A DNA stretch of 64,000 nucleotides from Verrucomicrobiia bacterium (GTDB lineage Bacteria > Verrucomicrobiota > Verrucomicrobiia > Limisphaerales > JADLHS01). Each line of letters opens with the position of its first letter. Position 1 is the stretch's first letter. The position numbers and the translations under genes are program-made. Below are positions 1,847 to 34,164 of the stretch, piece after piece. The stretch covers positions 40,280-104,279 of the forward strand of contig WYBW01000049.1 in NCBI GenBank assembly GCA_011525685.1, read 5' to 3'. The notes below the pieces were generated by a model. The model was given only the letters and a program-made list of their open reading frames with translations. It made no database searches and was not told where the DNA came from.

Positions 1847-4800
1847 ATGTCAGACCACGTTGAGAAAAAGACCGAGTCCGGTGTGGATGCGACGCCGAGC
1901 ACTTCAACCGTAGCGCAGACCTCCGAGTCTGCTGTATCGCAGGTTTCAAAACCTGCGGGCGCAACGAAGGGAGAAGCCCCCGAAAAATCTCAGCGCGATG
2001 CCGATTTGGAAATCGGCGATACAGCAGGTTTGGAAACCTGCGCTACGAAAAAGCCCGCAGCTCACGTTGAAAACAAGAAGGAGTCCGGTGGCATCGCTCA
2101 GTTCTTTGTCGAGCATCGGGAGGTGAGCTGGCTGGCGCTGATCGCCGTGCTGGTGTGGGGCGTGGTGGCCTACACCAAGCTGGGCCAGCAGGAAGACCCC
2201 ACGATTCCCCAGCGCACCGCGATGCTGGTGACGATCTTCCCCGGCGCGACCGCCTCGAAGGTCGAGGAACTGGTCGCGAAGCCGCTCGAACGCAAGATCA
2301 GCGAGCTGGATTCCATCGAGGAGATCAAGACGACGGTCCGGCCCGGCGTCGTCACGATGAACATCAAACAGCTTCCCGCGCCGAAGCCGACGATCGACCA
2401 GCAGTGGGACAAGGTCCGGTCCAAGATCGCCGAAGTGCAGTTGCCCGACGGCACGCGGCAGCCGTGGCTCAACACGGATTTTGGCAACACGATCACGCTG
2501 CTATATGCGCTGGTCAGCCCGCCAATCACCGAGGCGGAGTGCGTGGCGCGGGCCAACCTGCTGCGGGACCGCCTGGCCGACCTCCGCGCCGGAGCGCCTT
2601 CCACCCATCGCGCCGCCGTGGCGGCCTGGCTGCCCGGCATGGACGCGAAAGCCCTCGAGACGCTCCGCGGCCGGTTCGAGGTGGCAATCCAGGCGGCCGG
2701 TCTCGCCAAAGCCGTGCGCACTACTCAGGGTCACTCGTTCATCCTGGCCGACCTGGAAACCACCGCCAGCCGCGGCGATCTGGAGAAGTTCATCGCCGAG
2801 TTCACCCGAACGTTCACGGGCACCGATCGTGAACTGTATCATCCCGATTTCACCCAGCCGATCGTGTTGATGGGCGATGAAGACCCGTTGCCGCAAATCC
2901 GCGCCACGGCCCCGCCGCGTTACAGCTATCGCACGCTCGAGTTGCTGGCGCGCGATTTCGAGGACGAACTCAAGCAGGTCGAGAGCGTCGGCAAAGTCAC
3001 CAAGGTCGCCATCGTGGAGGAAGCGGTGTATCTGCTTTACTCGGACGCCGACCTGGCCGGCTACGGCCTGACGCCGGAAGGCGTGATGTTCTCGATCAAC
3101 GCGCGCAACGCGGTGATTCCCGGCGGCACAATGCGCACCGAAGGCCGCAATTTCCCCGTGCAGCTTTCCGGCGAATACAAGACCGAGAACGACATGCTCG
3201 GGACGGTGGTGGGCATGGGACGCGGCGGCGCGCCGGTGTATCTGCGCGATGTCTTCGAAGTCCGCCGGATGTATGAGTCGCCCATTTCCTACAAGGTGGA
3301 TGTGCTCGGACGCGACAATGTAGCGCAGGTTTCCAAACCTGCTGTGTCGCCGACTTCCAAGTCGGCAGCGCGTGGGAAGATCGAGCGGTCAGCGGATTTG
3401 GAAATCCGCGATACAGCAGACTTGGAAGTCCGCGCTACGACGGAAAGCTCGCCGCTCGACACGCGCCGCGCCGTCATGGTCGCCGTCGAGATGCGCGAGG
3501 GAAAGATCATCCGCCATTTCAACGAGGACGTGACGAGGTTGGTGGACCGGATGAAGGCGCGCACCCCCGAGGGCATCGAGTTTCGGGTGTTGTCCGACCA
3601 ACCCTCGGCCGTGGATCATCGCATCAAGCACTTCATGAAGTGCTTCATGGAGGCGGTGATCATCGTGATCGTCGTCGCGCTGTTCATGATGGATTGGCGC
3701 TCGGCGCTGGTGCTGGCCACCGCGATTCCCGTGGGCGTCGCCATGACGTTCGTGGGCATGCAGGTGCTGGGCATTCCCCTGCAACAAATCTCCATCGCCG
3801 CGCTCATCATCGCGCTGGGTCTGCTGGTGGACGTGCCGGTGGTCGCCTCCGATGGCATCAACCGCGAGCTGTATCGGAAGGAGCCGCGGTTGCGCGCGGC
3901 CTGGCTGGGGCCGCTGCGTCTGCGGCATCCCATGGTGTTCGGCACCCTGACCTGCGTCTTCTCGTTCCTGCCGCTGCTGATGCTCTACGGCGACAAGGGC
4001 GAGTTCATGAAGAGCATGCCGACGGTGGTGACCATGGCGCTGCTCTCGGCGTTGCTGGTGTCCAACACCTTCCTGCCGCTCATCAGCTACTACGTGCTGC
4101 GCGGGCAGAAAGGGTTCGATGAAGGCGGCGAGGTGCGTTCGTTCTTCCTGTTCGGGCTGGTGGATCGGGCGCTCCTGGCGCTGTTGCCGATCTACCAAAA
4201 GGCCCTGCGGGGCGCGCTCAAGCGACCGTATCTCGTTCTGGGCGTCGCCTACGCGGTGCTGGCGCTGGTCCTCGTCTTTGTGTTCCCGCGATTGGGCAGC
4301 CAGTTCTTCCCGCCGGCCGAGCGCAATCAACTGCTGGTGGACATCGAAACGCCTTCGAGCGATTCGCTGACCAGCACGCGCGCGGCGATGGATCAAGTGG
4401 TAACCATTATCAAGCAGCACGAGGAAGTGGCCAGCGCGGCGGTGTTCTCCGGCGGCACGGCCCCGCGTTTCTATTACAACGTCGAACCCAAGGCACCGGC
4501 CAATTACCTCGGGCAAATTCTCATCAACACGCGCCACGCGGACGAGGTGGACGGCCTGATCGTCAAACTGCGCAAGGAACTGGACTCTTCCGTGCCCGGA
4601 GTGCGCTGCGTCGTCAAGCCGCTCGAGCAAGGTCCGCCCATCAACGAACCGATCCAAATCCGCCTCAGCGGCGAGAACCTGGACAAGCTGCGCCTCCTCG
4701 CCGATCAGGTTGCGACCGAACTGCGCGCGGCGGGCGGCTATCACGTGCATGACGACCTCGGCCTGCGCATGCCCAGTCTCCAGATTGACATTGATCAGGA

Positions 4801-5707
4801 CCGCGCGAATTCACTCGGCTTGAACAACCGGCAGATTGGCGGCGTGGCCCTCTCCTCCTTTGCCGGTTTGCAGGTGACGGAACTGCGCGAAAAGGACCGG
4901 CTCATCCCCGTGTTGGTGCGCGGTCGCATCGAAGACCGCAGCGAGGTGGAGAAGATTCGCGCGCTCTACGCGCCGACGCCCGACGGGAAGAGCGTTCCCT
5001 TCGAGAGCTTCGCCAAGGTGACCGTGCAGCCCGAGTTCGTCCGGATTCCGCACTACAACCAACTTCGCACCGTCACCGTCAAGGCCTACGCGCCGTTCGG
5101 CGAACTGGCGTCGCAGGTGCTCGACCGCGCGCGCCCGGGCCTGGCGAAGATCAAACTCGAACCGGGTTACGAATTGAAGTTCGCCGGCGAGGACGAGGAA
5201 CTGCGCAAGAGCAAGGCGGAGATGATGGTCATCCTGATGGTCTGCCTGGCGCTGATCGTTGGCACGCTGGTGCTGCAATTCAAGTCGGTCGTCAAGGCGG
5301 CGACAGTCATGCTGACAGCGCCGCTGGTGCTCATCGCCTCGATCATCGGCCTCTTTGTCACCAACTCACCCTTCGGGTTCATGGCCATGCTGGCGGTGAT
5401 CAGCCTGATTGGCGTGCTCGTGTGCAACATGATCGTGCTCAGCGAACAGATCGAGCACTCGCGCGAACAGGGGCTGCCGTTGGAGGAGGCGCTGGTGAAG
5501 TCCGGCCTGTCCCGGTTGCGCCCGGTGCTGATGACGGTCCTGGCCGTGTCCGGCGGCCTGGTGCCGCTGTTCTTTGCCGGCGGCGCGCTGTGGCATCCGC
5601 TGACGGCGGTTCACATCTTCGGCCTGCTCTTCGCCCCGGTGCTGACGTTGGGGATGTTGCCGACGATGTACTATGTCTTCTGCGCCAAACTGAAGTTAAT
5701 CAAGTAA
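1847..5707 (+). CDS. RND efflux permease (AcrB/HAE-type inner-membrane pump), 1286 aa, carrying two in-frame repeat insertions
   Basis: Length, twelve hydrophobic segments in a 1+5 / 1+5 arrangement, and AcrB-like periplasmic domains. AGGAGA lies 8 nt upstream of the ATG. The gene sits between adaptor and outer-membrane factor genes. Confidence 0.95.
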   Translation: MSDHVEKKTESGVDATPSTSTVAQTSESAVSQVSKPAGATKGEAPEKSQRDADLEIGDTAGLETCATKKPAAHVENKKESGGIAQFFVEHREVSWLALIAVLVWGVVAYTKLGQQEDPTIPQRTAMLVTIFPGATASKVEELVAKPLERKISELDSIEEIKTTVRPGVVTMNIKQLPAPKPTIDQQWDKVRSKIAEVQLPDGTRQPWLNTDFGNTITLLYALVSPPITEAECVARANLLRDRLADLRAGAPSTHRAAVAAWLPGMDAKALETLRGRFEVAIQAAGLAKAVRTTQGHSFILADLETTASRGDLEKFIAEFTRTFTGTDRELYHPDFTQPIVLMGDEDPLPQIRATAPPRYSYRTLELLARDFEDELKQVESVGKVTKVAIVEEAVYLLYSDADLAGYGLTPEGVMFSINARNAVIPGGTMRTEGRNFPVQLSGEYKTENDMLGTVVGMGRGGAPVYLRDVFEVRRMYESPISYKVDVLGRDNVAQVSKPAVSPTSKSAARGKIERSADLEIRDTADLEVRATTESSPLDTRRAVMVAVEMREGKIIRHFNEDVTRLVDRMKARTPEGIEFRVLSDQPSAVDHRIKHFMKCFMEAVIIVIVVALFMMDWRSALVLATAIPVGVAMTFVGMQVLGIPLQQISIAALIIALGLLVDVPVVASDGINRELYRKEPRLRAAWLGPLRLRHPMVFGTLTCVFSFLPLLMLYGDKGEFMKSMPTVVTMALLSALLVSNTFLPLISYYVLRGQKGFDEGGEVRSFFLFGLVDRALLALLPIYQKALRGALKRPYLVLGVAYAVLALVLVFVFPRLGSQFFPPAERNQLLVDIETPSSDSLTSTRAAMDQVVTIIKQHEEVASAAVFSGGTAPRFYYNVEPKAPANYLGQILINTRHADEVDGLIVKLRKELDSSVPGVRCVVKPLEQGPPINEPIQIRLSGENLDKLRLLADQVATELRAAGGYHVHDDLGLRMPSLQIDIDQDRANSLGLNNRQIGGVALSSFAGLQVTELREKDRLIPVLVRGRIEDRSEVEKIRALYAPTPDGKSVPFESFAKVTVQPEFVRIPHYNQLRTVTVKAYAPFGELASQVLDRARPGLAKIKLEPGYELKFAGEDEELRKSKAEMMVILMVCLALIVGTLVLQFKSVVKAATVMLTAPLVLIASIIGLFVTNSPFGFMAMLAVISLIGVLVCNMIVLSEQIEHSREQGLPLEEALVKSGLSRLRPVLMTVLAVSGGLVPLFFAGGALWHPLTAVHIFGLLFAPVLTLGMLPTMYYVFCAKLKLIK
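1910..2046. repeat. Palindromic repeat element, family A (GTAGCGCAG...CTGCGCTAC termini, GGTTTGGAAACCTG-type hairpins)
   Basis: Terminal inverted repeats GTAGCGCAG / CTGCGCTAC and internal hairpins (GCCGATTTGGAAATCGGC, CAGGTTTGGAAACCTG). It lies inside the RND ORF and is translated as ..VAQTSESAVSQVSKPAG..ADLEIGDTAGLETCAT.. Confidence 0.7.
3320..3438. repeat. Palindromic repeat element, family A, second copy inside the RND pump gene
   Basis: GTAGCGCAGGTTTCCAAACCTGCTG ... CAGCAGACTTGGAAGTCCGCGCTAC. It is translated in frame as NVAQVSKPAVSPTSKSAARGKIERSADLEIRDTADLEVRAT. Confidence 0.7.
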
Positions 5708-5717
5708 TCATCACATT

Positions 5718-7169
5718 ATGCGCTCATCATTTCTGAAACTGTCGGTTGGTTGCGCCGCGCTGGCGCTGGCCGGGTGCGCCGTTGGCCCGAACTACAAACA
5801 ACCCGCGGTGAACACGCCGGCGGCGTTCCGGGGCGCGGCCAACGTTGATTCCACCAACTCGCTCGCCGACCTGCCGTGGTGGGGACTCTTCAAGGATCCG
5901 GCGCTCCAGGACTTGATCCACGTGGCCCTCACCAACAACTACGACCTGCAGATCACCCTCACGCGGGTGGATCAGGCGCGGGCGATTCAAGCGCAGGCGC
6001 GGTCGCAATTCCTGCCGCAAGTAGGCTACGGAGGTGAAGCCAATCGGGGCAAGAACGAGTATCTCGGCCTTCCCGCACCGAACGGCGGCCGAACCATGGA
6101 CAGCTACCTGGCCGGCCTCGGAGCGGTTTGGGAAATTGATCTTTGGGGCCGCGTGCGCCGGATGAGCGAAGCCGCCAAAGCCAACTTCATGGCCACGCAG
6201 GAAGGCCGGCGGGTGGTCATGACCTCGCTGGTCAGCGGCGTCGCCGCAGCCTACTTTGAGTTGCTGGAACTGGACGAGCAACTCGCCATTGCCCAGCGCA
6301 CGCGGGACTCCTACGAGCGGATGCTGAAACTGTTCTCCGACCAACATGCCGGCGGTCTGGCGTCGAAACTTGAGGTGTCCCGGGCCGAACTCGCGCTGCG
6401 TTCGGTTTCGGCCAACATCCCGGAGATTGAGCGCCAGATCGCGCTCAAAGAAAACGAAATCAACACGCTGCTGGGTCGCAACCCCGGCCCTATTGCCCGC
6501 ACCTCGACGCTGCTGGCGCAGGACTTGCCGGTCGAAATCCCGGTCGGTCTGCCGTCGAGTTTGCTGCAGCGCCGGCCCGACATCCGCGCCGCCGAGCAAC
6601 AAGTCCGGATGGCCAACGCGGAAATCGGCGTCGCCACCGCCGATTTCTTCCCGCGCATCGGTCTCACGACCTTTTACGGCGGCACCAGCACCGATCTCGA
6701 CAATCTGTTCAAGAGCGAGGCGAATGTCTGGTCCGCGGCGGCCAGCGCGGCCGGGCCGATCTTTACCGGCGGCCGGTTGACCGCCCACCGCCGGCAAGCC
6801 AAAGCCGCTTGGGAAGAAGCCAAACTGCATTACCAGCAGACCGCCCTCACCGCCTTCCGCGAGGTTTCCGATGCGCTCATCTCCCGCCGCCGGTTCGAAG
6901 AAAGCCGCAGCGAGCAAACGCAGGCCGTTGACGCCGGCCGTCAGGCTGTGGAACTGGCGACGACGCGCTTCAAAGAGGGCAAGGCGAGTTATTACGAGGT
7001 GCTCGAAGCGCAACAGCAACTCTACCCCGCCGAGAACACTCTCTCGCGCCTCGAAGTCGCCCGCCGCCTCGCCGTCATTCAACTCTACAAATCCCTCGGC
7101 GGCGGGTGGGAAACCGAGGCATCCGTGAACCCAGCCGCGCGGTCAGACGCGTCGTCTCAATCCAGGTAA
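5718..7169 (+). CDS. RND efflux outer-membrane factor lipoprotein (NodT/OprM family)
   Basis: Signal peptide with lipobox LALAGCAVGPNYKQP, typical of NodT. Two OEP-like repeats. It lies directly downstream of the pump gene. Confidence 0.9.
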   Translation: MRSSFLKLSVGCAALALAGCAVGPNYKQPAVNTPAAFRGAANVDSTNSLADLPWWGLFKDPALQDLIHVALTNNYDLQITLTRVDQARAIQAQARSQFLPQVGYGGEANRGKNEYLGLPAPNGGRTMDSYLAGLGAVWEIDLWGRVRRMSEAAKANFMATQEGRRVVMTSLVSGVAAAYFELLELDEQLAIAQRTRDSYERMLKLFSDQHAGGLASKLEVSRAELALRSVSANIPEIERQIALKENEINTLLGRNPGPIARTSTLLAQDLPVEIPVGLPSSLLQRRPDIRAAEQQVRMANAEIGVATADFFPRIGLTTFYGGTSTDLDNLFKSEANVWSAAASAAGPIFTGGRLTAHRRQAKAAWEEAKLHYQQTALTAFREVSDALISRRRFEESRSEQTQAVDAGRQAVELATTRFKEGKASYYEVLEAQQQLYPAENTLSRLEVARRLAVIQLYKSLGGGWETEASVNPAARSDASSQSR

Positions 7170-13767: not shown

Positions 13768-16254
13768 ATGAACCCCACCAAGATGAAGCCCAAACCGATA
13801 AAGAAAGAAGCCCTCCTCGCCCGCTACAACTGCGGGCCGGTGAAATTATCCGGCGACGGCAATGCCTTTTACGAGCGGCATCTGACCTTCGATCAAGTGC
13901 TGCGCGACACGGAAGCCACGGCGCGCGACAAGTATGAAGCCATCGCCCGTTCCGTGCGCGACGTGCTGTCGCAACGCTGGCTGAAGACCGAGCAAACCTA
14001 CCAGCAACGCAACGCCAAGCGAGTCTATTATCTCTCGATGGAGTTTCTGCTGGGGCGCTCGCTGGCGAACAACATCACCAACCTCCAGATTGATCCCGAA
14101 GTCGAACACTTCGCAAAACATCACCAACTCGATCCGCTCCAGATCATCGAACAGGAACCGGACGCCGGGCTGGGCAACGGCGGCCTCGGCCGGCTCGCCG
14201 CGTGTTTCCTCGATTCCATGGCCACGCTGAACATTCCCGGCATGGGTTACGGCTTGCGCTACGACTACGGCATCTTCCGGCAAAGCCTGCGCAATGGCTG
14301 GCAGGCCGAGCAACCCGACCACTGGCTCGCCCGGCCCGATCCGTGGGAAGTCGCCCGGCCCAACGAAGCCGTCGAGGTAAAGCTCAACGTGTCGTTCGAG
14401 ATTCGCGGCGGCGCGTTGCGGGTCGTCGAAGGCCGCCCGTCGTCGCTCATCGGCGTTCCGTATGACCGGCCCGTGGTCGGCTACGGCGGCAAGACCATCA
14501 ACACGCTGCGCCTCTGGGCCGTGAAGGCGGCGAATGACTTCGACTTCGCCCAGTTCAGCAGCGGCGATTTCGTCGGCGCGCTGGCCGAAACGCTCACCGC
14601 CGAAACTATCACGCGCGTGCTCTACCCGGACGATTCGACCGCCGAAGGCAAAGGGCTCCGCTTCCTGCAGGAATACTTCCTCGTCGCCTGCTCGCTCGCG
14701 GACCTTGTCCGCCGTTTTCGCGCCGCCGGCAACGATTGGTCCGCGCTGCCCGACAAGGTCGCCCTCCAGCTCAACGACACGCACCCGACGATGGCCGTGC
14801 CGGAATTGATGCGGCTGCTCCTGGACGAGGCGAAACTCAACTGGGACGACGCCTGGCAACTCACCCAACGCACGCTGGCCTATACGAATCACACGCTGCT
14901 GCCCGAAGCACTGGAGAAATGGCCGGTGCAATGGTTTCAAGAATTGTTGCCGCGCCAGCTTGCGATCATTTACGAAATCAACCACCGTTTTCTCAACGAC
15001 GTTCGCGCGAAGTTTCCCGGCGACGAAGCCCGCATTGCGCGGGTCAGCCTGATCGAGGAAGGCGCGCACCGGCAGGTGCGCATGGCGCACCTGGCTATCG
15101 TCGGCTCGCACAGCACCAACGGCGTGGCCGCGTTGCACTCGGAACTGCTCAAACAACGCGTCGTGCCGGATTTCGCAGCCGTGTTCCCCGAACGTTTCAA
15201 CAACAAGACCAACGGCGTCACCCCCCGCCGCTGGCTGCTGCTGGCCAATCCGCCGCTGGCCTCCGTCATCACCGAGGCCATCGGCGACGGCTGGATCACT
15301 GACCTGGCGCAGTTGGAGAAACTGAAGCCGCTCGCCAACGACAGCGCGTTCATCGCGGCGGTAGGCCAGGCGCAACGCGATACGAAGGCCCGGTTCGTCC
15401 AGTGGCTCGGCCGGCCCGGGATTGATCCCGAAAGTATTTTCGACACGCAAATCAAACGCATCCACGAATACAAACGGCAACTGCTGAACGCGCTCCACAT
15501 TGTCGTGCTTTACCATCGGCTGCGCGAGAATCCGAAGCTCGCCGTTCCGCCGCGCACGTTCTTCTTCGCCGGCAAAGCCGCGCCCGCCTACCACTTCGCC
15601 AAGCTGGTCATCAAGTTCATCAACAACGTCGCGGCCACGCTTGACAGTGATCCCGCCACCAAGGGCCGGCTCAAGGTTGTTTTCGTGCCGGACTACCGCG
15701 TGTCCGTGGCGGAATGCCTGATTCCCGCCAGCGACGTGTCCGAGCAAATCTCGACCGCCGGCTACGAAGCCAGTGGCACGAGCAACATGAAGTTCATGAT
15801 GAACGGCGCGCTCACCATCGGCACGCGCGACGGCGCCACCATCGAAATGGCCGAAGCCGCCGGCGAGGAAAACGTCTTTCTGTTCGGCCTGAATGCGGAA
15901 CAGGTCGAGGCCAGTCGCGGCTGGTATGATCCGCGTTGGCACTACGAGAACGAGCCGGAAACGCGCGCCGCGCTCGACTTGATTGCCAACAATCATTTCA
16001 GCCAAAACGAATCCGGCATCTTCTCGCCCATCCTCGATGCGCTGCTCCGGGATGGCGACCACTACCGGCATCTGGCCGATTTCACCAGTTACGCCCAGGC
16101 CCAGCAACGGATCGGGGAACTGTATGCCGACCCACCGGCCTGGACCCGCAAGGTGATCCTGAACATTGCCGCCTCCGGCCGGTTCTCCAGCGACCGCACG
16201 ATTTCTCAGTATGCCAAAGAGATTTGGAACGCTGAACCTTGTCCGATCGAATAA
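13768..16254 (+). CDS. glgP: Glycogen/maltodextrin phosphorylase
   Basis: 828 aa with hallmark GT35 segments (EPDAGLGNGGLGRLAACFLDS, TNHTLLPEALE, the PLP-site region EISTAGYEASGTSNMKFMMNG). Confidence 0.95.
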   Translation: MNPTKMKPKPIKKEALLARYNCGPVKLSGDGNAFYERHLTFDQVLRDTEATARDKYEAIARSVRDVLSQRWLKTEQTYQQRNAKRVYYLSMEFLLGRSLANNITNLQIDPEVEHFAKHHQLDPLQIIEQEPDAGLGNGGLGRLAACFLDSMATLNIPGMGYGLRYDYGIFRQSLRNGWQAEQPDHWLARPDPWEVARPNEAVEVKLNVSFEIRGGALRVVEGRPSSLIGVPYDRPVVGYGGKTINTLRLWAVKAANDFDFAQFSSGDFVGALAETLTAETITRVLYPDDSTAEGKGLRFLQEYFLVACSLADLVRRFRAAGNDWSALPDKVALQLNDTHPTMAVPELMRLLLDEAKLNWDDAWQLTQRTLAYTNHTLLPEALEKWPVQWFQELLPRQLAIIYEINHRFLNDVRAKFPGDEARIARVSLIEEGAHRQVRMAHLAIVGSHSTNGVAALHSELLKQRVVPDFAAVFPERFNNKTNGVTPRRWLLLANPPLASVITEAIGDGWITDLAQLEKLKPLANDSAFIAAVGQAQRDTKARFVQWLGRPGIDPESIFDTQIKRIHEYKRQLLNALHIVVLYHRLRENPKLAVPPRTFFFAGKAAPAYHFAKLVIKFINNVAATLDSDPATKGRLKVVFVPDYRVSVAECLIPASDVSEQISTAGYEASGTSNMKFMMNGALTIGTRDGATIEMAEAAGEENVFLFGLNAEQVEASRGWYDPRWHYENEPETRAALDLIANNHFSQNESGIFSPILDALLRDGDHYRHLADFTSYAQAQQRIGELYADPPAWTRKVILNIAASGRFSSDRTISQYAKEIWNAEPCPIE

Positions 16255-16270
16255 GAAAGCCAGCACCACC

Positions 16271-18415
16271 ATGTTCGCTGAAGGCCAGCCAGTGCCAGTG
16301 GGAGCAACGTGGACTGGGGACGGGTGGAACTTCGCCTTGTATTCCCGGCACGCGACCGGTGTGACGTTGCTGTTGTACGACGAGAAGAATTTCGTAAAGC
16401 CCGTGGCCGTGCTCAAGCTCGAGCCGCTGCAGAACAGAACCGGACGCATCTGGCATTGCTTCGTTTCGCAATCCACCGCGCCGGGCGCGCGATACTACGC
16501 TTACCGGGTCGAAGGCCCAGCCGGGGTGTTGCACCGGTTCGATGCCCAGAAGGTGTTGCTCGATCCCTTTGCCGAGCAGGTGTTCTTTCCGCCGGATTTT
16601 TCGCGTGCCGCCGCGATGCAGCCGGGCGCGAACGATGGACGTGCGCCGCTCGGTGTGTTGCCCATGAACCCGGAGTCCGAAACGCGAATTCCCGAAACCC
16701 GAAAGAAGCCCGAAATCCGAGCACCGAACCCAACTTCATCTGGCGGTTTGGAAACCTGTTCCCCGGACAGTACTCATAACCCGCCAGTTCGGCATTCGGG
16801 GTACGGATTTCTTTCGGATTTCGGTCCTCGAACTTCGGATTTCAGGTGGAAGCCGGCGGCCACCGGTGAGTTCACCCGGCTACGCCGTCCCTGGCACGAG
16901 ATCGTCGTCTATGAACTGCACGTCAAAGGCTTCACGGCCCGCGCGAACTCCGGCGTGACTCCCGAAAAACGCGGAACGTTCCTGGGCTTGATCGAAAAGA
17001 TTCCGTATCTCAAAGAACTCGGCGTGACGGTCGTCGAGTTGTTGCCGGTGCATCAGTTCGATCCGCAGGAGGGCAATTACTGGGGCTACATGACATTGAG
17101 CTTCTTTGCGCCGCATCAAGGTTACGCAGTGCAGGATGCGGCGGCGGATTTTCGCGAGATGGTGGAGGCGTTTCACGCGGCCGGGATCGAGGTGTGGCTC
17201 GACGTGGTTTACAACCACACGTGCGAAGCCGACCGGGCCGGGCCGACTTATTCGTGGCGCGGGATTGACAACAGCACTTACTACCTGCTCGAACCCGACG
17301 GGCGATACCGCAACGACAGCGGCTGCGGGAACGTGCTGCGTTGCGGGCGCGAGGCCGCGCGCCTGCTGGTCCTGGAGAGCCTGCGGCATTGGGCTGATAT
17401 CGGCGTTGACGGGTTTCGTTTTGACCTGGCCTCCGCTTTGGCGCGCGATGCGCACGGCCAGGTGCTGACGGACGAGGCTCCGATGATCAGCGAGATTACG
17501 GCGCTGGCCATGGCGGGAAAATTCCGGGCCGTGGCCGAGGCGTGGGACATCGGGACGAGTCTGTTGGGCCGGAGTTATCCGGGCTGGCTGTGGGGACAGT
17601 GGAACGGCCAATACCGCGACGACGTGCGCGCCTTTGTTCGCGGCGATCCCGGCAAGGTCGGCGCGCTGATGCGGCGGTTGTACGGCAGTGATGATCTCTT
17701 TCCTGAAGGCCCAGGCGATGTTTACCGGCCGTATCAGAGCGTCAACTTCATCACCGCGCACGACGGCTTTTGTCTCTACGATCTGGTCGCCTACAACCAC
17801 AAGCACAACGAAGCCAACGGCCATAACAACACCGACGGCTGCGACAATAACCTGAGCTGGAACTGCGGTTGGGAAGGCGACGCGGGCGCGCCGGCGGAGG
17901 TGATCACGTTGCGCCGGCAACAAGTGAAGAACTTTTTCTGCCTGCTGATGCTGTCGAACGGCACGCCGATGTTCTGCGCGGGCGACGAGTTTCTGAACAC
18001 GCAAGGCGGCAACAATAACCCGTACAATCAAGACAACGAAACCACGTGGCTGGACTGGTCGTTGCTCGAAAAGAACCGCGACATCTTTCAGTTTTTCCAG
18101 CGGATGATCGCGTTCCGCAAAGCGCACCCGGCCATTGCCAGCGGCCGGTATTGGCGCGAGGCGGTGCGGTGGTACGGAGCAACCGGCCCGGTGGATTTTG
18201 ATTCGCGCTGTCTGGCGTATTGTTTGCACGGCGCGAGCGACCTCTACGTCATGATCAACGCCTTCTGGGAGCCGGTGCGATTCCAAATTCAGCAGCCCGG
18301 CGCTTGGAACTGTTTCGTGGACACCAGCAGCCAGGATTTGGAAACGCGGGCCGTAGCTGGTTTGAATTATGAGGTTGCACCACGATCCGTCGTGGTGCTG
18401 GAGCGCGCAGCATGA
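16271..18415 (+). CDS. glgX: Glycogen debranching enzyme (GlgX/isoamylase-type GH13) with an in-frame repeat insertion
   Basis: N-terminal CBM48-like GATWTGDGWNFALYS. GH13 motifs DVVYNHT, GFRFDLA, EAWD and FITAHDGF. Confidence 0.9.
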   Translation: MFAEGQPVPVGATWTGDGWNFALYSRHATGVTLLLYDEKNFVKPVAVLKLEPLQNRTGRIWHCFVSQSTAPGARYYAYRVEGPAGVLHRFDAQKVLLDPFAEQVFFPPDFSRAAAMQPGANDGRAPLGVLPMNPESETRIPETRKKPEIRAPNPTSSGGLETCSPDSTHNPPVRHSGYGFLSDFGPRTSDFRWKPAATGEFTRLRRPWHEIVVYELHVKGFTARANSGVTPEKRGTFLGLIEKIPYLKELGVTVVELLPVHQFDPQEGNYWGYMTLSFFAPHQGYAVQDAAADFREMVEAFHAAGIEVWLDVVYNHTCEADRAGPTYSWRGIDNSTYYLLEPDGRYRNDSGCGNVLRCGREAARLLVLESLRHWADIGVDGFRFDLASALARDAHGQVLTDEAPMISEITALAMAGKFRAVAEAWDIGTSLLGRSYPGWLWGQWNGQYRDDVRAFVRGDPGKVGALMRRLYGSDDLFPEGPGDVYRPYQSVNFITAHDGFCLYDLVAYNHKHNEANGHNNTDGCDNNLSWNCGWEGDAGAPAEVITLRRQQVKNFFCLLMLSNGTPMFCAGDEFLNTQGGNNNPYNQDNETTWLDWSLLEKNRDIFQFFQRMIAFRKAHPAIASGRYWREAVRWYGATGPVDFDSRCLAYCLHGASDLYVMINAFWEPVRFQIQQPGAWNCFVDTSSQDLETRAVAGLNYEVAPRSVVVLERAA
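16686..16846. repeat. Palindromic repeat element, family C (CCGAAATCCG / CGGATTTCGG arms)
   Basis: CCCGAAACCCGAAAGAAGCCCGAAATCCGAGCACCGAAC versus GTTCGGCATTCGGGGTACGGATTTCTTTCGGATTTCGG. It is translated inside glgX as ETRKKPEIRAPNP..GYGFLSDFGPRTSDFR. Boundaries are approximate. Confidence 0.65.
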
Positions 18416-21757: not shown

Positions 21758-23662
21758 ATGTCCACCATCCTCAACGCCACCGAAGTCACCGTGCGCTACG
21801 GCGAACGGGCGATTCTCGACGCGGCCACGCTCGCGATTGACGAGGGGCAGCGCCTCGGCCTGGTTGGGCGCAACGGCTGCGGGAAGACAACCTTTCTGCG
21901 GCTGCTTGCGGGATTGCAGTCGCCGGATTCCGGCACGATCAGCCGGCGGCGCGAGCTGGCGGTGAGTTATCTCGCGCAGGATTTCATGCTCGATCCTACT
22001 CAGGACGTGCGCGGCAACGTGCGTGCCGGGGCGAAGTACGTGCTGGACCTCATCGCGGAGTTCGAATCGCTGCCGCATGACTCGAAACGGCACGAGGAAC
22101 TGGAGCACCGCATCCAGACGCTTGAAGGCTGGACCGTGGACCAGCGCATCGAAACCGCGCTGTCGCACCTCAACTGCCCGCCCGGCGACCGCGAAATTGC
22201 CACGCTGTCCGGCGGCGAGAAGCGCCGCGTGGCGCTGGCTCGGGCCATTGTTTCGCGCCCCGATTTCCTGATGCTGGACGAGCCCACCAACCATCTCGAC
22301 CCGGAATCCATCGAGTGGGTGGCGGAGTTTTTGGAGAACTTCGGCGGCACGTTTCTCGTGGTGACGCACGACCGGTATTTCTTGGACCGCGTCGTCACCC
22401 GCATGGTCGAGTTGTGCGACGGCAAATTCTGGTGGCACGACGGCAACTACACCGATTACCTCCTGGACAAAGCCGAACGGCAGGAAGCCGACGCGGTGAT
22501 CGAGCACAAGCGCCAGATGTTTCTCAAAAAGGAACTGGAGTGGGTGCGCACCGGTCCGCGGGCCCAACGCAGCAAGCAGAAGAACCGATTCGAGCGTTAC
22601 TACGAGGAAGCGGCAAGGGAGGGCCCGACGGTCGAGGAGGACATGGAACTGGTCATCCCGCCGCCGCCGCAACTGGGCAATCGCACCGTGGAGGTCAACA
22701 ATCTTGGCATTGAACTTGGTGGGCGGAAGTTGTTTTCCGGATTCAATTTCACGTTTGAGAATGGCAAACGCGTCGGGGTCTGCGGGCGCAACGGCCTCGG
22801 CAAAACCACGCTTCTGAAAATCATCATCGGCCGGCTTGCCCCGACGGAAGGCACCGTGAAGACCGGCCAGCTCACGATGTTCAACTACGTGGATCAGTCG
22901 CGCCTGCAAATGAATGACGAGCGGACGGTGCTGGAGGAAGCGTCCGATGGAACGGAATTCGTCCTTTGGGGCGAGTCGCGCATCTCGGTGCGCTCGTATC
23001 TGAAGCGGTTTCTCTTTGCGGACGAGCGCATCACCACGCAGGTGAAGAAACTCAGCGGCGGCGAACGCAGCCGGCTGCTGTTGGCGAAGATTCTCAAGTG
23101 CGGCGGCAACTTCCTCATCCTCGACGAACCGACCAATGACCTCGACCTGCCCACCTTGCGCGTGCTGGAGGAGGCGTTGATTGCGTTCCCGGGTGTGGTG
23201 TGTGTCGTGAGCCATGACCGGTATTTTCTGAATCGCGTTTGCACGGACATTCTCGCCTTCGAGGGCGACGGCAAGATCCATCACAGCGTCGGCGACTACG
23301 ATTATTACCTTGAGAAGAAGCAGCGCGCGGCTGTAGCGGCGTCTCGGCAGAGCGCCGCCATTCTGGCTGTAAATAAATCAGCGGCGCTCTCCCGAGCCGC
23401 CGCTACGAAGACTGCGAAGCCCCGCAAGCTCTCCTTCAAAGAACAGCGAGAGCTGGAAGGCATGGAGGCGCAAATCCTTGCGGTGGAGGAGGAAATCGCC
23501 CGCATCGAGGCCTTGTTCGTCTCCCCCGACTTCCATCGCACCCACGCAACGCAAACCAATCAACTCACCGCCCAACTCGCTGCCGCCAAAGAACAGGCAA
23601 TGCAGCTTTACGCGCGCTGGGAGGAATTGGAGGCAATCAAGACGGCGGCGGAAAAGCCGTAG
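21758..23662 (+). CDS. ABC-F family ATPase (Uup/EttA-like, two ABC domains, no TM domain)
   Basis: Two Walker A motifs (GRNGCGKTT, GRNGLGKTT), two signature motifs (LSGGEKRR, LSGGERSR) and a C-terminal coiled-coil tail. Confidence 0.9.
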   Translation: MSTILNATEVTVRYGERAILDAATLAIDEGQRLGLVGRNGCGKTTFLRLLAGLQSPDSGTISRRRELAVSYLAQDFMLDPTQDVRGNVRAGAKYVLDLIAEFESLPHDSKRHEELEHRIQTLEGWTVDQRIETALSHLNCPPGDREIATLSGGEKRRVALARAIVSRPDFLMLDEPTNHLDPESIEWVAEFLENFGGTFLVVTHDRYFLDRVVTRMVELCDGKFWWHDGNYTDYLLDKAERQEADAVIEHKRQMFLKKELEWVRTGPRAQRSKQKNRFERYYEEAAREGPTVEEDMELVIPPPPQLGNRTVEVNNLGIELGGRKLFSGFNFTFENGKRVGVCGRNGLGKTTLLKIIIGRLAPTEGTVKTGQLTMFNYVDQSRLQMNDERTVLEEASDGTEFVLWGESRISVRSYLKRFLFADERITTQVKKLSGGERSRLLLAKILKCGGNFLILDEPTNDLDLPTLRVLEEALIAFPGVVCVVSHDRYFLNRVCTDILAFEGDGKIHHSVGDYDYYLEKKQRAAVAASRQSAAILAVNKSAALSRAAATKTAKPRKLSFKEQRELEGMEAQILAVEEEIARIEALFVSPDFHRTHATQTNQLTAQLAAAKEQAMQLYARWEELEAIKTAAEKP

Positions 23663-23716: not shown

Positions 23717-26428
23717 GTGTCCGCCACGTTATACGATCTCATTCCGCGCGAGGAGAAAACCGGCAATGATGTGCTGCTGGGGCGGTTTCTCGATTACGTG
23801 GAGGGAAGGCGGCTGCAACTTTATCCCGCCCAGGAATCCGCCATCCTGGAATTGTTCGAGGACAAGAACGTCATCCTGAACACGCCCACCGGCTCGGGCA
23901 AATCGCTCGTAGCCACGGCGCTGCATTTCGCAGCCATCGCCAGGGGCCGGCGCTCCATCTACACCTGTCCGATCAAGGCGCTGGTAAACGAGAAGTTCAT
24001 GGCGCTGTGCCGCGAGTTCGGCCCGGACAACGTCGGCCTCAGTACGGGCGATGCGTCGGTGAACCGCGACGCGCCCATCCTTTGCTGCACGGCGGAGATT
24101 CTCGCGAACATCGCCTTGCGCGAAGGCGCGGCGGCCAATGTGCAGGACGTGGTCATGGATGAATTTCATTACTACGCCGATCGGGAACGTGGCGTGGCTT
24201 GGCAGGTGCCGTTGCTGACGTTGCCGCAAACGCGCTTCCTGCTCATGTCCGCGACGCTGGGCGACACGACATTCTTCGAGGAGGAACTGACACGACTCAA
24301 CGGTCGGCCCACCTCTGCGGTGGCGTCCACGGATAGACCGGTGCCGTTGGAACATGCCTACTCGGAACTGCCGCTGGCCAAAACGCTGGAGAGTCTCGTC
24401 GCCGACGGCAAAGCCCCGGTGTATGTCGTCCACTTCACACAATTGGAAGCCGCGCAAAGCGCGCAGGATTTCACGAGCATCAATGTTTGTTCGCGGGAGG
24501 AGAAAGCCGCCATCGCCAACGCGCTCGAAGGTTTCAAGTTCAGCAGCCCCTACGGGCCGGACATCAAGAAGTGGCTGCGGCACGGCATCGGCCTGCATCA
24601 CGCCGGGCTGCTGCCGAAGTATCGCGTGTTGATCGAGCAACTCGCGCAGAAGGGTTTGCTGAAAGTTGTATGCGGCACGGACACGCTGGGCGTGGGCATC
24701 AACGTGCCGATTCGCACCGTGCTGTTCACACGGTTGTGCAAATTCGACGGGCAGAAGACCGTCATTCTGAGCGCGCGCGATTTTCATCAGATCAGCGGGC
24801 GGGCCGGGCGCAAGGGTTTTGATGATCGCGGCTGGGTCGTGGCCCAGGCGCCGGAGCACGTGATCGAGAACTTGAAGCTGGCGGAGAAAGCGGCGCGCGA
24901 TGGCAAGAAAACCGTGAAGCGCCAGCCGCCGGAAAAGAATTTCGTCAACTGGGACAAGAACACGTTTCTGCGGTTGATCGCCGCGCCGCCCGAACGGCTC
25001 ACGTCGCGTTTCCAAGTCACGCACGGAATGTTGCTGAATGTGTTAAGCCGAAATGGCGATGGTTGCCGGGCGATGCAGCAACTCATCGCGCGTTGTCACG
25101 AGACGCCGCGCCAGAAGCAGGCGCACCTCAAACGCGCGTGGCAGTTGTTCCGCTCGTTGCTGGACCGGAGGATTGTGGAGTTCATAGCCCGCCCTCACCC
25201 TGACCCTCTCCCCCAGGAGAGGGAACAGCCAGGTGCGGCTTCTGATGCTTCGTTGACTGACGTTTCAAATCCCGCGTCCGGTATTACCCAAACGCGGCAA
25301 GCGATTCTCCCTCTCCCCGGGGGAGAGGGCCGGGGTGAGGGCGAGCGCAAGTCACTGGATGGCGGCCGGAAACTTCGCGTGAACGTCGAGCTGCAGGAGG
25401 ATTTCTCCATGGACCAGGCGTTGTCGTTGTATCTGCTCGACACGATTCCACTCGTGGACCCGCAGCAACCCGATTACGCGCTGGTGCTGCTCACGCTCGT
25501 CGAGTCCATTATCGAGGACCCGGACATCATTCTGCGCAAACAACTGGACCGCGTGAAGGACCAGAAAATGGCCGAGATGAAAATGGAGGGCCTTGATTAC
25601 GACCAGCGCATGGAGGAATTGGAGAAGCTCGAATATCCAAAGCCGAACCGGGAGTTCATCTATTCCACGTTCAACGCGTTTGCGGATCGCCATCCGTGGG
25701 TCGGCCAGGAAAACATCCGCCCGAAATCCATCGCGCGGGAGATGTTTGAATCGTTCCGCTCATTTGGCGATTACATCCGCGACTACGAACTGCAACGCGC
25801 GGAGGGCGTTTTGCTCCGGCACTTGAACCGCGTTTACAAAGTGCTCACACAAAATGTTCCGGACGCCGCCAAGAACGATCAAGTGCGCGAGATGGAGCTT
25901 TATCTGGGCGCGATGATCCGGCAGGTGGATTCCAGCTTGCTCGATGAATGGGAGAAAATGCGCGACCCGAATTATCAACGGGCGGAAACAAAGGAGGTGC
26001 GTCCACCCGGCGCGGACGAAGCCGCGCAAGATGTCACGCGCGACACGAAGGCGTTTACGGCGGCGATTCGGAATCGCATCTTTGTTTTCCTGCGCGGGCT
26101 GGTTATCGGTGATTACGAGGCGGCAATTGCAAATCTCAATTCCGCGGCGGATGCCGACGCGCAGCCGTGGACGCCGGATCGTTTGCGCGCCGCGATGCAA
26201 GCTTACGAAGCCGAGCACGATCATCTGTGTCTCGACCCCAACGCGCGGAATGTGCGTCACACCTATGTCGTGCCCGCGGAGGACAAGAAGACCTGGCGCG
26301 TTCAACAAATGCTCGTGGACCCGGAAGGCGACAACGACTGGGTGGCGGAGTTCGAAGTGGACCTGGCGCAATCACGCACCCAAGGCGAACCGTTCCTGCA
26401 ACTGCGGCGCATCGGCAGTCTGGTGTGA
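23717..26428 (+). CDS. Large superfamily-2 DEAH/Ski2-like helicase with a long C-terminal domain, carrying an in-frame repeat insertion
   Basis: Motif [13 protein letters not shown], motif II DEFH, motif III SAT and motif [15 protein letters not shown] start. Confidence 0.85.
25190..25343. repeat. Palindromic repeat element, family D (CGCCCTCACCC..CCCTCTCCCCCAGGAGAGGG / CCCTCTCCCCGGGGGAGAGGG..GGGTGAGGGCG)
   Basis: 34-bp terminal inverted repeats, each itself a hairpin. It is translated inside the helicase as [15 protein letters not shown]...[14 protein letters not shown]. Confidence 0.7.
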
Positions 26429-28993: not shown

Positions 28994-29104
28994 CATGGAG
29001 CGCGGGCTTCAGCCCGCTTCAACTTCGCAAATGGAAGGACACGGAACGATGACAATCTCACCTTTCACTCGCGCGGCGAAGCGGCATGAACGCCGCGCTC
29101 CATG
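28994..29104. repeat. Palindromic repeat element, family G, second copy
   Basis: CATGGAGCGCGGGCTTCAGCCCGCTTCAAC ... GAAGCGGCATGAACGCCGCGCTCCATG. It fills the gap between the L7Ae-like and DEAD-box genes. Confidence 0.65.
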
Positions 29105-31130: not shown

Positions 31131-33233
31131 TCAAATCTTGGCGAGGGTTGAAGCATCGCGGGCTACCTGAAACACCGCGAGGCAAACCTGCGCCGTGGCC
31201 GGATCATTCAGGCAAAGCGCCCCCTCCCGGATGCGCGGATGCGGCTCGCCCTCCAGGCGCAGCGGAAAACGTTGTCTCAGCGAACGGGCGCAAGCTTGAG
31301 AGTCCTCATACCCTCCGGCTCGGAGCGTGACTCGATTGAGCAGCCGAAGCGAACCATGACAGCACTGGCAGGTCTGCCGCATCAACTCCACGAGCACTCG
31401 GCCCATGGTGTAGCGGGGATTGATTTCGACGACAGGCTTGAGCCGCGGTTGGCCGGCGGCGTCGCGATAGACGAACGCATCAATGCCCACCGGACCAAGA
31501 TAGTCCGCGCGACTCAGTTCGCGCTCCAACAACGCGAAAAGTCCGGCGTAAAGCTCGAGCAAGCGGCGGGAAACATCCGGCGGCTCATGGAACTGGGCCA
31601 CAACCTTGACCGGGATGCGGGTGTGGTGGTGCGGCTCGGCCCAGTTGCCTTGGTACTGACCTTTGGCGTCGTTGAGCAGACCTGTGTAGCCGCAAACTTT
31701 CAAGCCCGCGGACGTCAGCTCGAGTTGCACGGAAAAATCCACCAACCGCTCCAGCCAGGGCTCGATCACAAGCTGCTGTCCATTCGCAAGTTTCCTGGCC
31801 ATCCAACGGCGATGTGATTCGGGCAGTTCCGGCTCAAAAAGCCGGATGGCATTGCTGCCGGCCAGACCGATGGCTTGCTTGACGACGATCTGGTGATGGC
31901 CGCGTTTGCGAATGGACGCGATGGCCTCGAGCGCCTGGTCCAGCGAATCCGCGGCCACACCCACCTCAGCCTCGGTGCAGAGCCAGTTTGGAATGGCCGA
32001 TTGCGAAGCCAGGAAATGTCTGAGCAATTCCGCGCTCCAAGCTTTGGAGTAAAGCCGGGCAATGCCGGGGTTGAATCGCCGGGCGGCGGCGCGCTCCTCG
32101 GCCGTGACATTGGCAAACAGCGGCGACAGCAATTCCGCGCTGTCCGGTGACCACGCCCACGGCCGCAGCCGGCCCAGCTTGCGTGAACCCTTGCTCTCGA
32201 TGAAGTGCCCCAACTCTACAAACTCCGGCAGCGGAAACCCCGCCTGCTTGATGCCGCTGAGAAACTCCACCGAAGGCCGGCGCTCCACCAGCACGATGTC
32301 GTCCTGACGACAAAGGAATTGCGGCAGGTTCTCCAGGTCGCGCGCGAGTTGGGCCTGATGTTTTGCGGGGTTGAAACCTTTTCCCTCGGCGAGGTGCCCT
32401 TCGGCAAACGGATTGAACACGAACACGCCGGGCGTGCGGCCTTTCGATTGCGAGTACACGTCCAGCTCCGCAATGAACTGCGGATCGAAACCGGCGGCGC
32501 GGCGGCCCTCGACGTTCAGTGAGAAACCTTTGGCGCGCTGCGGTGAGAGCGGAAATCTCAATGTGCGGCAGAACGCTTCCCAGTCGGTTTCATTCGGGTT
32601 CTTCCAGCGGCGAAACCATTTGAGGCCATAAGCCACGTGGCCGATTTCGTCGCGGTAGATTTTTTCCAGCAGTCTGGCCGTGTCCGCGTCGCCCACTTTC
32701 TCGAAGCCGCGCGCGAAGTGACGGGCGAAGTCCAGATTGGCCTGCTCGAACGTGAGGCAAAGCCCGGCCACGTAATCAATCGGATTTTCCATCGGCGCGA
32801 CACAGCGCCAGAAGTAGCCGCTCACCGGCAACTCGCCAAACCGGATGCCGCACGCTTTCATGCGCTCGACATAGAGCCGGGTGTGATCCTGCTCGTCCTT
32901 GAGCGTTTGCAGCACCCCTTTGCGGAAGGCGGCGGGCGCGTCGGGGAATTTCAAGAGCACCAGCGCCATCAATTCGGTGGCGAGCAGTTCATGGTTGGCG
33001 AAGAAATGCAGCAACCGCCCCCGCTCACGCGCTTTTTCGAGGTGATGCAGTCCGGGGAACTCCGCCCTGCCGGTGCCATGCGGCTTGAACTGAAGTTCAC
33101 CCGGCCGGCCGGGAGCGGGCGGGGTGACCAGCGCCGGGCCGGGCCGTTCGTCTGTGATTTGGTCCGGGCACTGGAGTTTCTCTTCCAGCGTGGTCGCAAA
33201 CAACACGCGCTCGGCGAATTCACGAAGTTCCAT
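31131..33233 (-). CDS. Fusion protein: N-terminal ferritin-like diiron (DUF455/MiaE-like) domain plus C-terminal ATP-grasp-like domain
   Basis: The N-terminal half has two E-x-x-H motifs (EQDH, EIGH) plus upstream Glu residues, as in diiron-carboxylate proteins. The C-terminal half has IVVKQAIGLAGSNAI, LVIEPW and VVEINPRYTMG (E-x-N), as in ATP-grasp ligases. The start is taken at MELREF (33233). Confidence 0.7.
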   Translation of the reverse strand: MELREFAERVLFATTLEEKLQCPDQITDERPGPALVTPPAPGRPGELQFKPHGTGRAEFPGLHHLEKARERGRLLHFFANHELLATELMALVLLKFPDAPAAFRKGVLQTLKDEQDHTRLYVERMKACGIRFGELPVSGYFWRCVAPMENPIDYVAGLCLTFEQANLDFARHFARGFEKVGDADTARLLEKIYRDEIGHVAYGLKWFRRWKNPNETDWEAFCRTLRFPLSPQRAKGFSLNVEGRRAAGFDPQFIAELDVYSQSKGRTPGVFVFNPFAEGHLAEGKGFNPAKHQAQLARDLENLPQFLCRQDDIVLVERRPSVEFLSGIKQAGFPLPEFVELGHFIESKGSRKLGRLRPWAWSPDSAELLSPLFANVTAEERAAARRFNPGIARLYSKAWSAELLRHFLASQSAIPNWLCTEAEVGVAADSLDQALEAIASIRKRGHHQIVVKQAIGLAGSNAIRLFEPELPESHRRWMARKLANGQQLVIEPWLERLVDFSVQLELTSAGLKVCGYTGLLNDAKGQYQGNWAEPHHHTRIPVKVVAQFHEPPDVSRRLLELYAGLFALLERELSRADYLGPVGIDAFVYRDAAGQPRLKPVVEINPRYTMGRVLVELMRQTCQCCHGSLRLLNRVTLRAGGYEDSQACARSLRQRFPLRLEGEPHPRIREGALCLNDPATAQVCLAVFQVARDASTLAKI

Positions 33234-33860: not shown

Positions 33861-33880
33861 CCTGGATATTTCATAGACCT

Positions 33881-34021
33881 CTCATTAGCACCGGGCTTCA
33901 GGCCGGTGAGCCGAGGCGAGGATGCGTTGCAGCCGCTTCAGCGGCTTACATAGCGCGTGAAAAGCCGTTGAAACGGCTCATTCCCAGCGCTTCCACCGGG
34001 CTGAAGTCCGGTGCTAATGAG
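33881..34021. repeat. Palindromic repeat element, family F (CTCATTAGCACCGGGCTTCAGGCCGGTG termini)
   Basis: 28-bp terminal inverted repeats with 2-3 mismatches at 33881-33908 and 33994-34021, plus an internal hairpin GCCGTTGAAACGGC. Confidence 0.7.
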
Positions 34022-34164
34022 AACACGCGCACCGAGTGTGAAGTGTTCGGGTGAGGAGGGTTCAATCCGGAGACTCGGCTGTCCGCTTGCGAAGCGGCTT
34101 ACCACCACGACTCGGATGACAGCGTGTCCACTGGCCAAGCTGAATTCTCAGCGGCCTCAGGGGT

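Follow-up and report, generated by a model that had tools for sequence, protein, structure and literature searches.

Palindromic repeats and the glgX locus

Rickettsia palindromic elements (RPEs) are the classic case of palindromic repeats carried in frame inside protein genes. A comparable situation was found in a 64,000-nucleotide stretch of contig WYBW01000049.1 (the whole stretch analyzed, hereafter the window) from a free-living, Verrucomicrobiae-like bacterium. There, a 180-nt segment carrying a palindrome (the glgX element) lies inside an open reading frame (ORF) for a GlgX/isoamylase-type debranching enzyme and, judged by its sequence, is one of a family of dispersed hairpins whose arms are built of tandem heptanucleotides (heptad-arm hairpins). 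As with RPEs, a palindromic repeat of 100-200 nt sits in frame in a housekeeping gene, at a tolerated site, and leaves a functional-looking host gene. The glgX element differs from RPEs in its unrelated sequence and in its host, which is not a Rickettsia, while its family has tandem-heptad arms and mostly intergenic copies. Because of this host and heptad architecture, sequence membership in any of RPE-1 to RPE-10 is implausible, and the resemblance would be functional only.

Bacterial miniature inverted-repeat transposable elements (MITEs, such as Correia/NEMIS, ERIC and Nezha) are small and non-autonomous, with long terminal inverted repeats that fold into hairpins; they occur in many copies, sometimes in frame. 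The glgX element resembles them in its 60-nt inverted arms, its palindrome length of 177 nt and its non-coding composition, but the heptad family shows no target-site duplications (5 bp or longer) and its termini are not sharply defined. No autonomous insertion sequence is known to match the family. Cyanobacterial heptamer-repeat (STRR-type) hairpins, in which tandem heptanucleotides form inverted arrays around a unique centre, offer a lead, although their heptad sequence and phyla differ from those of the heptad family.

Repetitive extragenic palindromes (REPs) are mostly extragenic, lie near the 3' ends of ORFs, are rare between divergent genes and produce no target-site duplication (Di Nocera et al. 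2013, PMC3733652). Intragenic copies occur now and then, DnaE/DnaE2 being among the genes affected, and Opitutus terrae, a verrucomicrobium, carries REPs in abundance (PMC3733652). Like the GTAG/CGTC-tagged REPs and REPINs, heptad-arm hairpins are dispersed, mostly extragenic, near gene 3' ends, scarce between divergent genes and sometimes intragenic. The glgX element differs from them in having 60-nt arms of tandem heptads rather than REP units of 20-40 nt, and reading the sequence of 16670-16849 revealed none of the tags GTAG, CTAC, CGTC or GACG. Selfish palindromic DNA tolerated in frame is of a known kind, represented by RPEs and intragenic REPs.

A 180-nt insertion between the CBM48 and catalytic domains of GlgX

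The frame around glgX is open from 16166, and the gene runs on the plus strand from the ATG at 16271 to 18415 (stop included), encoding 714 amino acids (MFAEGQ...). Its assignment rests on Pfam, on solved structures in the PDB and on identical copies elsewhere. An N-terminal CBM48 domain (CBM_48, PF02922, residues 9-101, E = 1.3e-16) is followed by an alpha-amylase-type catalytic domain (PF00128, from residue 231, E = 4.3e-20), as in GlgX/isoamylase-type enzymes (GH13 with CBM48). The best solved relatives are TreX/GlgX (TreX 2vnc, E = 2.6e-128; E. coli GlgX 2wsk, E = 1.2e-108) and plant isoamylases, and the PDB alignments end at query residue 104 to restart at 205. The catalytic residues D385, E423 and D498 occupy invariant columns (motifs GFRFDLA, AEAWD and HDGF) and are all kept, as is every other invariant column of the alignment.

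The segment absent from orthologs spans 16670-16849 on the plus strand (180 nt, 60 codons, residues 134-193, PESETRIPETRKK...TSDFRW), as supported by protein and DNA alignments, blastn breakpoints, GC content at third codon positions (GC3) and the structure model, and it is an insertion. In a protein alignment with 22 close homologs, the nearest (P0002-P0010; 78-85% identity across the full alignment, 80-87% in the best local BLASTP match to the query) ran from LPxxxP straight to ...RLRHPWHEI. The linker between N[DA]GxAxLG and YELHVKGF measured 23-27 residues in 100 of the 102 homologs having both motifs, compared with 86 in the window GlgX. On the orthologous contigs L004-L009, blastn alignments ended at 16662-16670 and resumed at 16849 or later; the flanks of these empty sites were 84-86% identical in DNA, and the sites held no pre-existing heptads. 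The same 714-aa protein, with 4.4-7.2 kb of surrounding DNA at 100% identity, was recovered from three independent Logan metagenome assemblies, which excludes an assembly artefact; the insert-bearing copies represent the same strain.

What the first-pass annotation of this DNA had observed and proposed held at this locus, with a small correction of one border. The inverted repeat does lie inside the debranching-enzyme ORF, which is unbroken across it; the repeat strings it had quoted, the derived peptide and the WHEIVVYELHVKGFT segment just downstream of that peptide all fall within glgX. The position between the N-terminal and catalytic domains agrees with the domain boundaries given above, and frame preservation with the 180-nt length, the open ORF and the empty site in the closest full-length orthologs. 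A homologous linker in orthologs, which it had named as the observation that would speak against insertion, was absent from the alignments. It had placed the element at 16686-16846; the left border had to be moved 16 nt further left, where homology with orthologs is lost (16668-16670).

The insert is an imperfect palindrome of two 60-nt arms around a 57-nt centre (177 nt together, parts given without strand). The left arm (16670-16729) consists of degenerate heptads (GTCCGAA, ACGCGAA, ..CCCGAA, ACCCGAA), an 11-nt unit CGAAAGAAGCC, and the heptads ATCCGAG and CACCGAA. The centre (16730-16786) has a small stem of its own (CTGGCGG...CCGCCAG) and contains the 14-mer GGTTTGGAAACCTG. The right arm (16787-16846) mirrors the left one with TTCGGCA, TTCGGGG, TACGGAT, TTCTTTCGGAT, TTCGGTC, CTCGAAC, TTCGGAT and TTCAGG; the 11-nt unit thus occurs on both arms, as CGAAAGAAGCC on the left and, mirrored, as GGATTTCTTTCG on the right. 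The arm core (16692-16729 against 16787-16824, 38 nt) was 76% complementary, while in full register (16670-16729 against 16787-16846) each arm, aligned with two gaps, matched the reverse complement of the other at about 70% identity. Heptad arrays of six and five units were counted, and shuffling the window 200 times produced no such arrays. Folded as RNA, 16670-16860 reached -77.9 kcal/mol (z = -4.1), a value matched by 0 of 200 dinucleotide shuffles.

GC content by codon position was 0.53/0.62/0.50 in the insert and 0.62/0.45/0.77 in the rest of glgX (GC3 of 0.774), so the insert does not have the appearance of evolved coding sequence. An AlphaFold2 model built on a 119-sequence alignment (predicted TM score, pTM, of 0.81) showed residues 138-197 without secondary structure and with a predicted local distance difference test (pLDDT) of about 30-46, compared with 82-90 for the flanking blocks. 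A first model from 23 sequences was poor overall (pTM 0.44) and agreed on the insert. On these models, the insert is probably a disordered 60-residue loop rich in Pro, Ser, Thr and Arg.

Two further homologs carried unrelated palindromes in the same linker: an 80-nt private segment (2807-2886) in P0001/L004, adding 16 residues and folding at -58 kcal/mol, and a 267-nt linker region (1939-2205) in P0056/L128, adding 65 residues and folding at -147 kcal/mol. All three linker-length outliers among 103 proteins therefore consist of palindromic DNA. This pattern fits a permissive surface linker between the CBM48 domain and the catalytic barrel, and the linker might conceivably be a preferred insertion target as well.

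The heptad-arm hairpin family and its genomic context

The strict pattern CCGAAATCCGA-N75-105-TCGGATTTCGG (22 fixed bases), run against a single genome for each prokaryotic species, matched at least 118 loci, where about one would be expected by chance according to our own arithmetic on the fixed bases. According to record labels, 58 of these loci came from Planctomycetota and 38 from Verrucomicrobiota (96 together, 81%), nine from Acidobacteriota (seven of them in one metagenome-assembled genome, MAG), two from other phyla of the same group and 11 from other taxa, some of the last being probably mis-binned or chance matches (e.g., L077). Only three viral contigs matched the family, and carriage by phages was rejected given this small presence.

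In the architecture common to family members, the left arm consists of tandem NNNCGAA heptads (338 units read ATCCGAA), a single 11-nt unit and further, often degenerate heptads. The 11-nt unit reads CGAAAGAAnnC or CGAAACAAAtC (in general CGAA[A/T][C/G]AAnnC) and is mirrored in both arms. The centre varies in sequence and in length (7-99 nt), and the right arm is the mirror image (TTCGNNN). Successive CGAA motifs were spaced by 7 nt 378 times and by 11 nt 55 times, and heptad numbers differed between copies. Within an element, 49% of mirrored heptads agreed in their variable triplet, compared with 34% between elements (maximum of 200 shuffles, 39%). Genome-specific subfamilies were observed, with whole elements kept between loci (three copies for L045; also L058, L100 and L126, as well as L033 and L047), and the other genomes held 4-9 sampled copies each. 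The glgX element follows the exact family register, with heptads and the 11-nt unit in both arms, and on these sequence features it is a member of the family.

The family seems to be new. Rfam returned nothing at gathering score for the glgX element (only RRE, 11.6 bits against a threshold of 104) and only rRNA and RNase P matches for 18 family loci. Literature searches with literal heptad strings, translations and keywords gave no description of the family, the only relevant paper being that of Di Nocera et al. (2013) on REPs.

Most copies were intergenic and near stop codons. The counts that follow are approximate, as they come from a crude gene caller (ORF and GC3) that over-extends starts and dropped glgX itself: 60 copies lay between co-directional genes, 18 between convergent and 9 between divergent ones, and the median distance from the upstream stop codon to the element was 9.5 nt (about 120 copies, L010-L127). 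Long stop-free frames spanned 19 elements which, once screened with Pfam, turned out mostly to lie just upstream of a real start; L124, L063, L062, L111, L082 and L042 were rejected as intragenic copies on this ground. Only two true in-frame insertions remained among the 19. One hairpin (L010, 402-599) lies in a dnaE-type polymerase gene and adds about 73 residues between positions corresponding to residues 643 and 649 of PolIII-alpha from Thermus aquaticus (Taq). The other (L081, 7294-7426) lies in the GDE_C amylo-1,6-glucosidase domain of a GDE-type debrancher, right after APLWFAV, on a Verrucomicrobiae chromosome sharing 77% nucleotide identity with another part of the window.

Reading of (TCCGAAA)n and its complement showed zero stop codons in any frame, and 383 of 750 element-frames (51%) were open across the family. 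In the glgX element, stop codons of the other frames all fell in the centre, with a single exception, a minus-strand TAA at the right arm's outer end. With 51% of frames open and one length in three preserving the frame, about one in six random intragenic insertions would keep the ORF, and the occasional in-frame survivors may be explained by heptads that hold no stop codon in any frame.

Two RNA loci were noted among family-bearing records. In L016, a 23S rRNA gene (minus strand, 1-2476) is preceded by a heptad-arm hairpin (3153-3276), which lies some 680 nt upstream of the gene's 5' end, in the leader or spacer region of the rRNA operon. In L074, a Gemmataceae MAG, a bacterial RNase P class A match extended over 654 nt (6060-6713) against a 367-position model, implying large RNA insertions.

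Likely origin and tolerance of the insert, and its setting

A copy of a non-coding palindromic repeat, inserted in the glgX linker and tolerated as a passenger rather than as a functional module, is the explanation that we consider likely. A dispersed heptad-arm hairpin with arms of about 60 nt and a variable centre would have landed in the short variable linker that leads from CBM48 to the catalytic barrel. The gene would have survived because the heptad arms are stop-free in all six frames, because the added 180 nt are divisible by three, and because a surface linker accepts extra residues. The enzyme would then be made with an additional loop of 60 residues, and the insert is assumed here to be neutral.

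Several results weigh against this explanation. The first-pass annotation had assigned the palindrome to a repeat family; the family is real, but its members lie in other genomes, and neither blastn-short nor heptad-array scans found a second copy within the 64-kb window (a heptad array at 32702-32750 was rejected as ordinary coding sequence). A scan of JGI metagenomes with a 20-mer of the centre yielded no sister copy sharing that centre; the single match, on an AT-rich contig, was rejected as chance. None among 5.8 billion proteins shared three 5-residue words with the insert peptide. The arms of the glgX element (about 70% identity) were more degenerate than those of typical family copies; this may be an old copy, and such a copy, if retained, could have gained a function. 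The three insert-bearing sequences were identical and hence uninformative on selection. No transposase link was seen where gene pairs between two elements were checked, by size only, the pairs being ordinary-operon-like. Finally, target-site duplications (5 bp or longer) did not rise above the shuffled control (longest shared flank words, 119 copies), and the flanks of the glgX site offered only an imperfect GAAsCCGGmG pair, unconvincing as such a duplication. In the absence of target-site duplications, transposition through a hairpin or single strand, or recombination, would fit better than a classical cut-and-paste MITE.

The same flank comparison is what lends some weight to an arrival without transposition, in which the segment would have been copied from another heptad hairpin through recombination or template switching, or built up locally by slippage and fold-back synthesis. 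Heptad numbers that vary among copies point the same way, and the co-variation of mirrored heptads is what fold-back templating would be expected to produce. Yet the empty-site orthologs offered no prior heptads to expand, and near-identical whole elements at separate loci (those of L045, L058, L100 and L126, and of L033 and L047) indicate whole-unit copying; this route appears doubtful. An ancestral linker lost elsewhere, or a chimeric assembly, is a bare possibility with nothing more in its favour; the 23-27-residue linker of nearly all homologs, the non-coding composition of the insert, its recovery from independent assemblies and its architecture, that of an intergenic repeat family, make it extremely improbable.

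A role for the hairpin as RNA or DNA would be compatible with a passenger origin: a stem-loop of -72 to -78 kcal/mol might be a target of RNase III or act as an attenuator of transcription or translation, thereby tuning glgX or uncoupling the N-terminal domain. The strong fold (z = -4.1) is in keeping with such a role, as is the placement of family members shortly after stop codons and more rarely between divergent genes, which is also that of REPs thought to act on transcripts (PMC3733652). However, the sense fold was no better than the antisense fold, either across the family (32 vs 45, p = 0.17) or in the glgX element (-72.0 vs -75.8 kcal/mol), no terminator or promoter signal exceeded shuffles in 16000-17400, and Rfam gave no match. 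An intrinsic terminator was rejected, family elements being followed by no sense-specific T-tract and the local consensus scan being unremarkable. Overall, we regard a role at this level as unlikely. Slightly less likely still is an exapted loop that would give GlgX a new property (oligomerisation, binding to glycogen particles or contact with a partner) and be kept by selection. Three lineages did independently acquire extra sequence in the same linker, and the frame is intact and the sequence identical in three samples; but the three linker inserts are unrelated in sequence, the identical copies stem from one strain and say nothing of selection, and the glgX insert has neither a coding-type codon signature nor predicted structure, nor any homologous peptide among the 5.8 billion proteins.

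A broader interpretation than the passenger insertion in glgX is offered more tentatively, as something we would judge possible but less than probable. Heptad-arm hairpins may form an undescribed repeat class that is spread through the Planctomycetota-Verrucomicrobiota group, reaches a few further phyla, lies beside stop codons and is easily absorbed into proteins. The copies in glgX, in the dnaE-type gene and in the GDE-type debrancher would then illustrate an ongoing "exonisation", and the GlgX linker would be a recurrent site of landing or tolerance, with three independent palindrome events.

Other palindromes were observed in the window. An AcrB/RND-type ORF (1847-5707, 1286 aa) matches the Pfam profile ACR_tran (1021 positions, E = 3e-151) in three separate stretches and is long for this profile; it contains GTAG-tagged REP-like palindromes GTAGCGCAGGTTTCCAAACCTGC at 1909-2047 and 3320-3420 (four matches against zero in shuffles) that look like further in-frame repeat insertions. 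The 14-mer GGTTTGGAAACCTG from the centre of the glgX element (16745-16758) also occurs in these REP-like repeats at 2027-2040 and 3326-3339 (blastn-short, E = 0.04), which may reflect a nested or composite element, or chance. A palindrome at 23333-23406 lies in an ABC-F-type ATPase ORF (21758-23662), where it separates the second ABC domain from the C-terminal one, and another at 25187-25346 in a DEAD-box/DUF3516 helicase ORF (23717-26428), immediately ahead of residue 548, where the DUF3516 match picks up again. The genome of the window seems rich in intragenic palindromes. Two intergenic palindromes of about 110-140 nt (28994-29104 and 33880-34022) bear GGGCTTCAGCCC-type sub-hairpins and represent another repeat type; these sub-hairpins resemble those of the P0056 insert.

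As a tolerated passenger, the glgX insert would show that free-living, Verrucomicrobiae-like bacteria, like Rickettsia, tolerate selfish palindromes within essential enzymes, and it would bring into this phenomenon a repeat family outside Rfam and the literature searched. Stop-free heptads would provide a simple reason, at the sequence level, for survival in frame. The linker between CBM48 and the barrel of GlgX is marked as a natural permissive site, which could serve protein engineering. For annotation, the finding carries a warning that long low-complexity loops and many "N-terminal extensions" in this bacterial group may be translated repeats.

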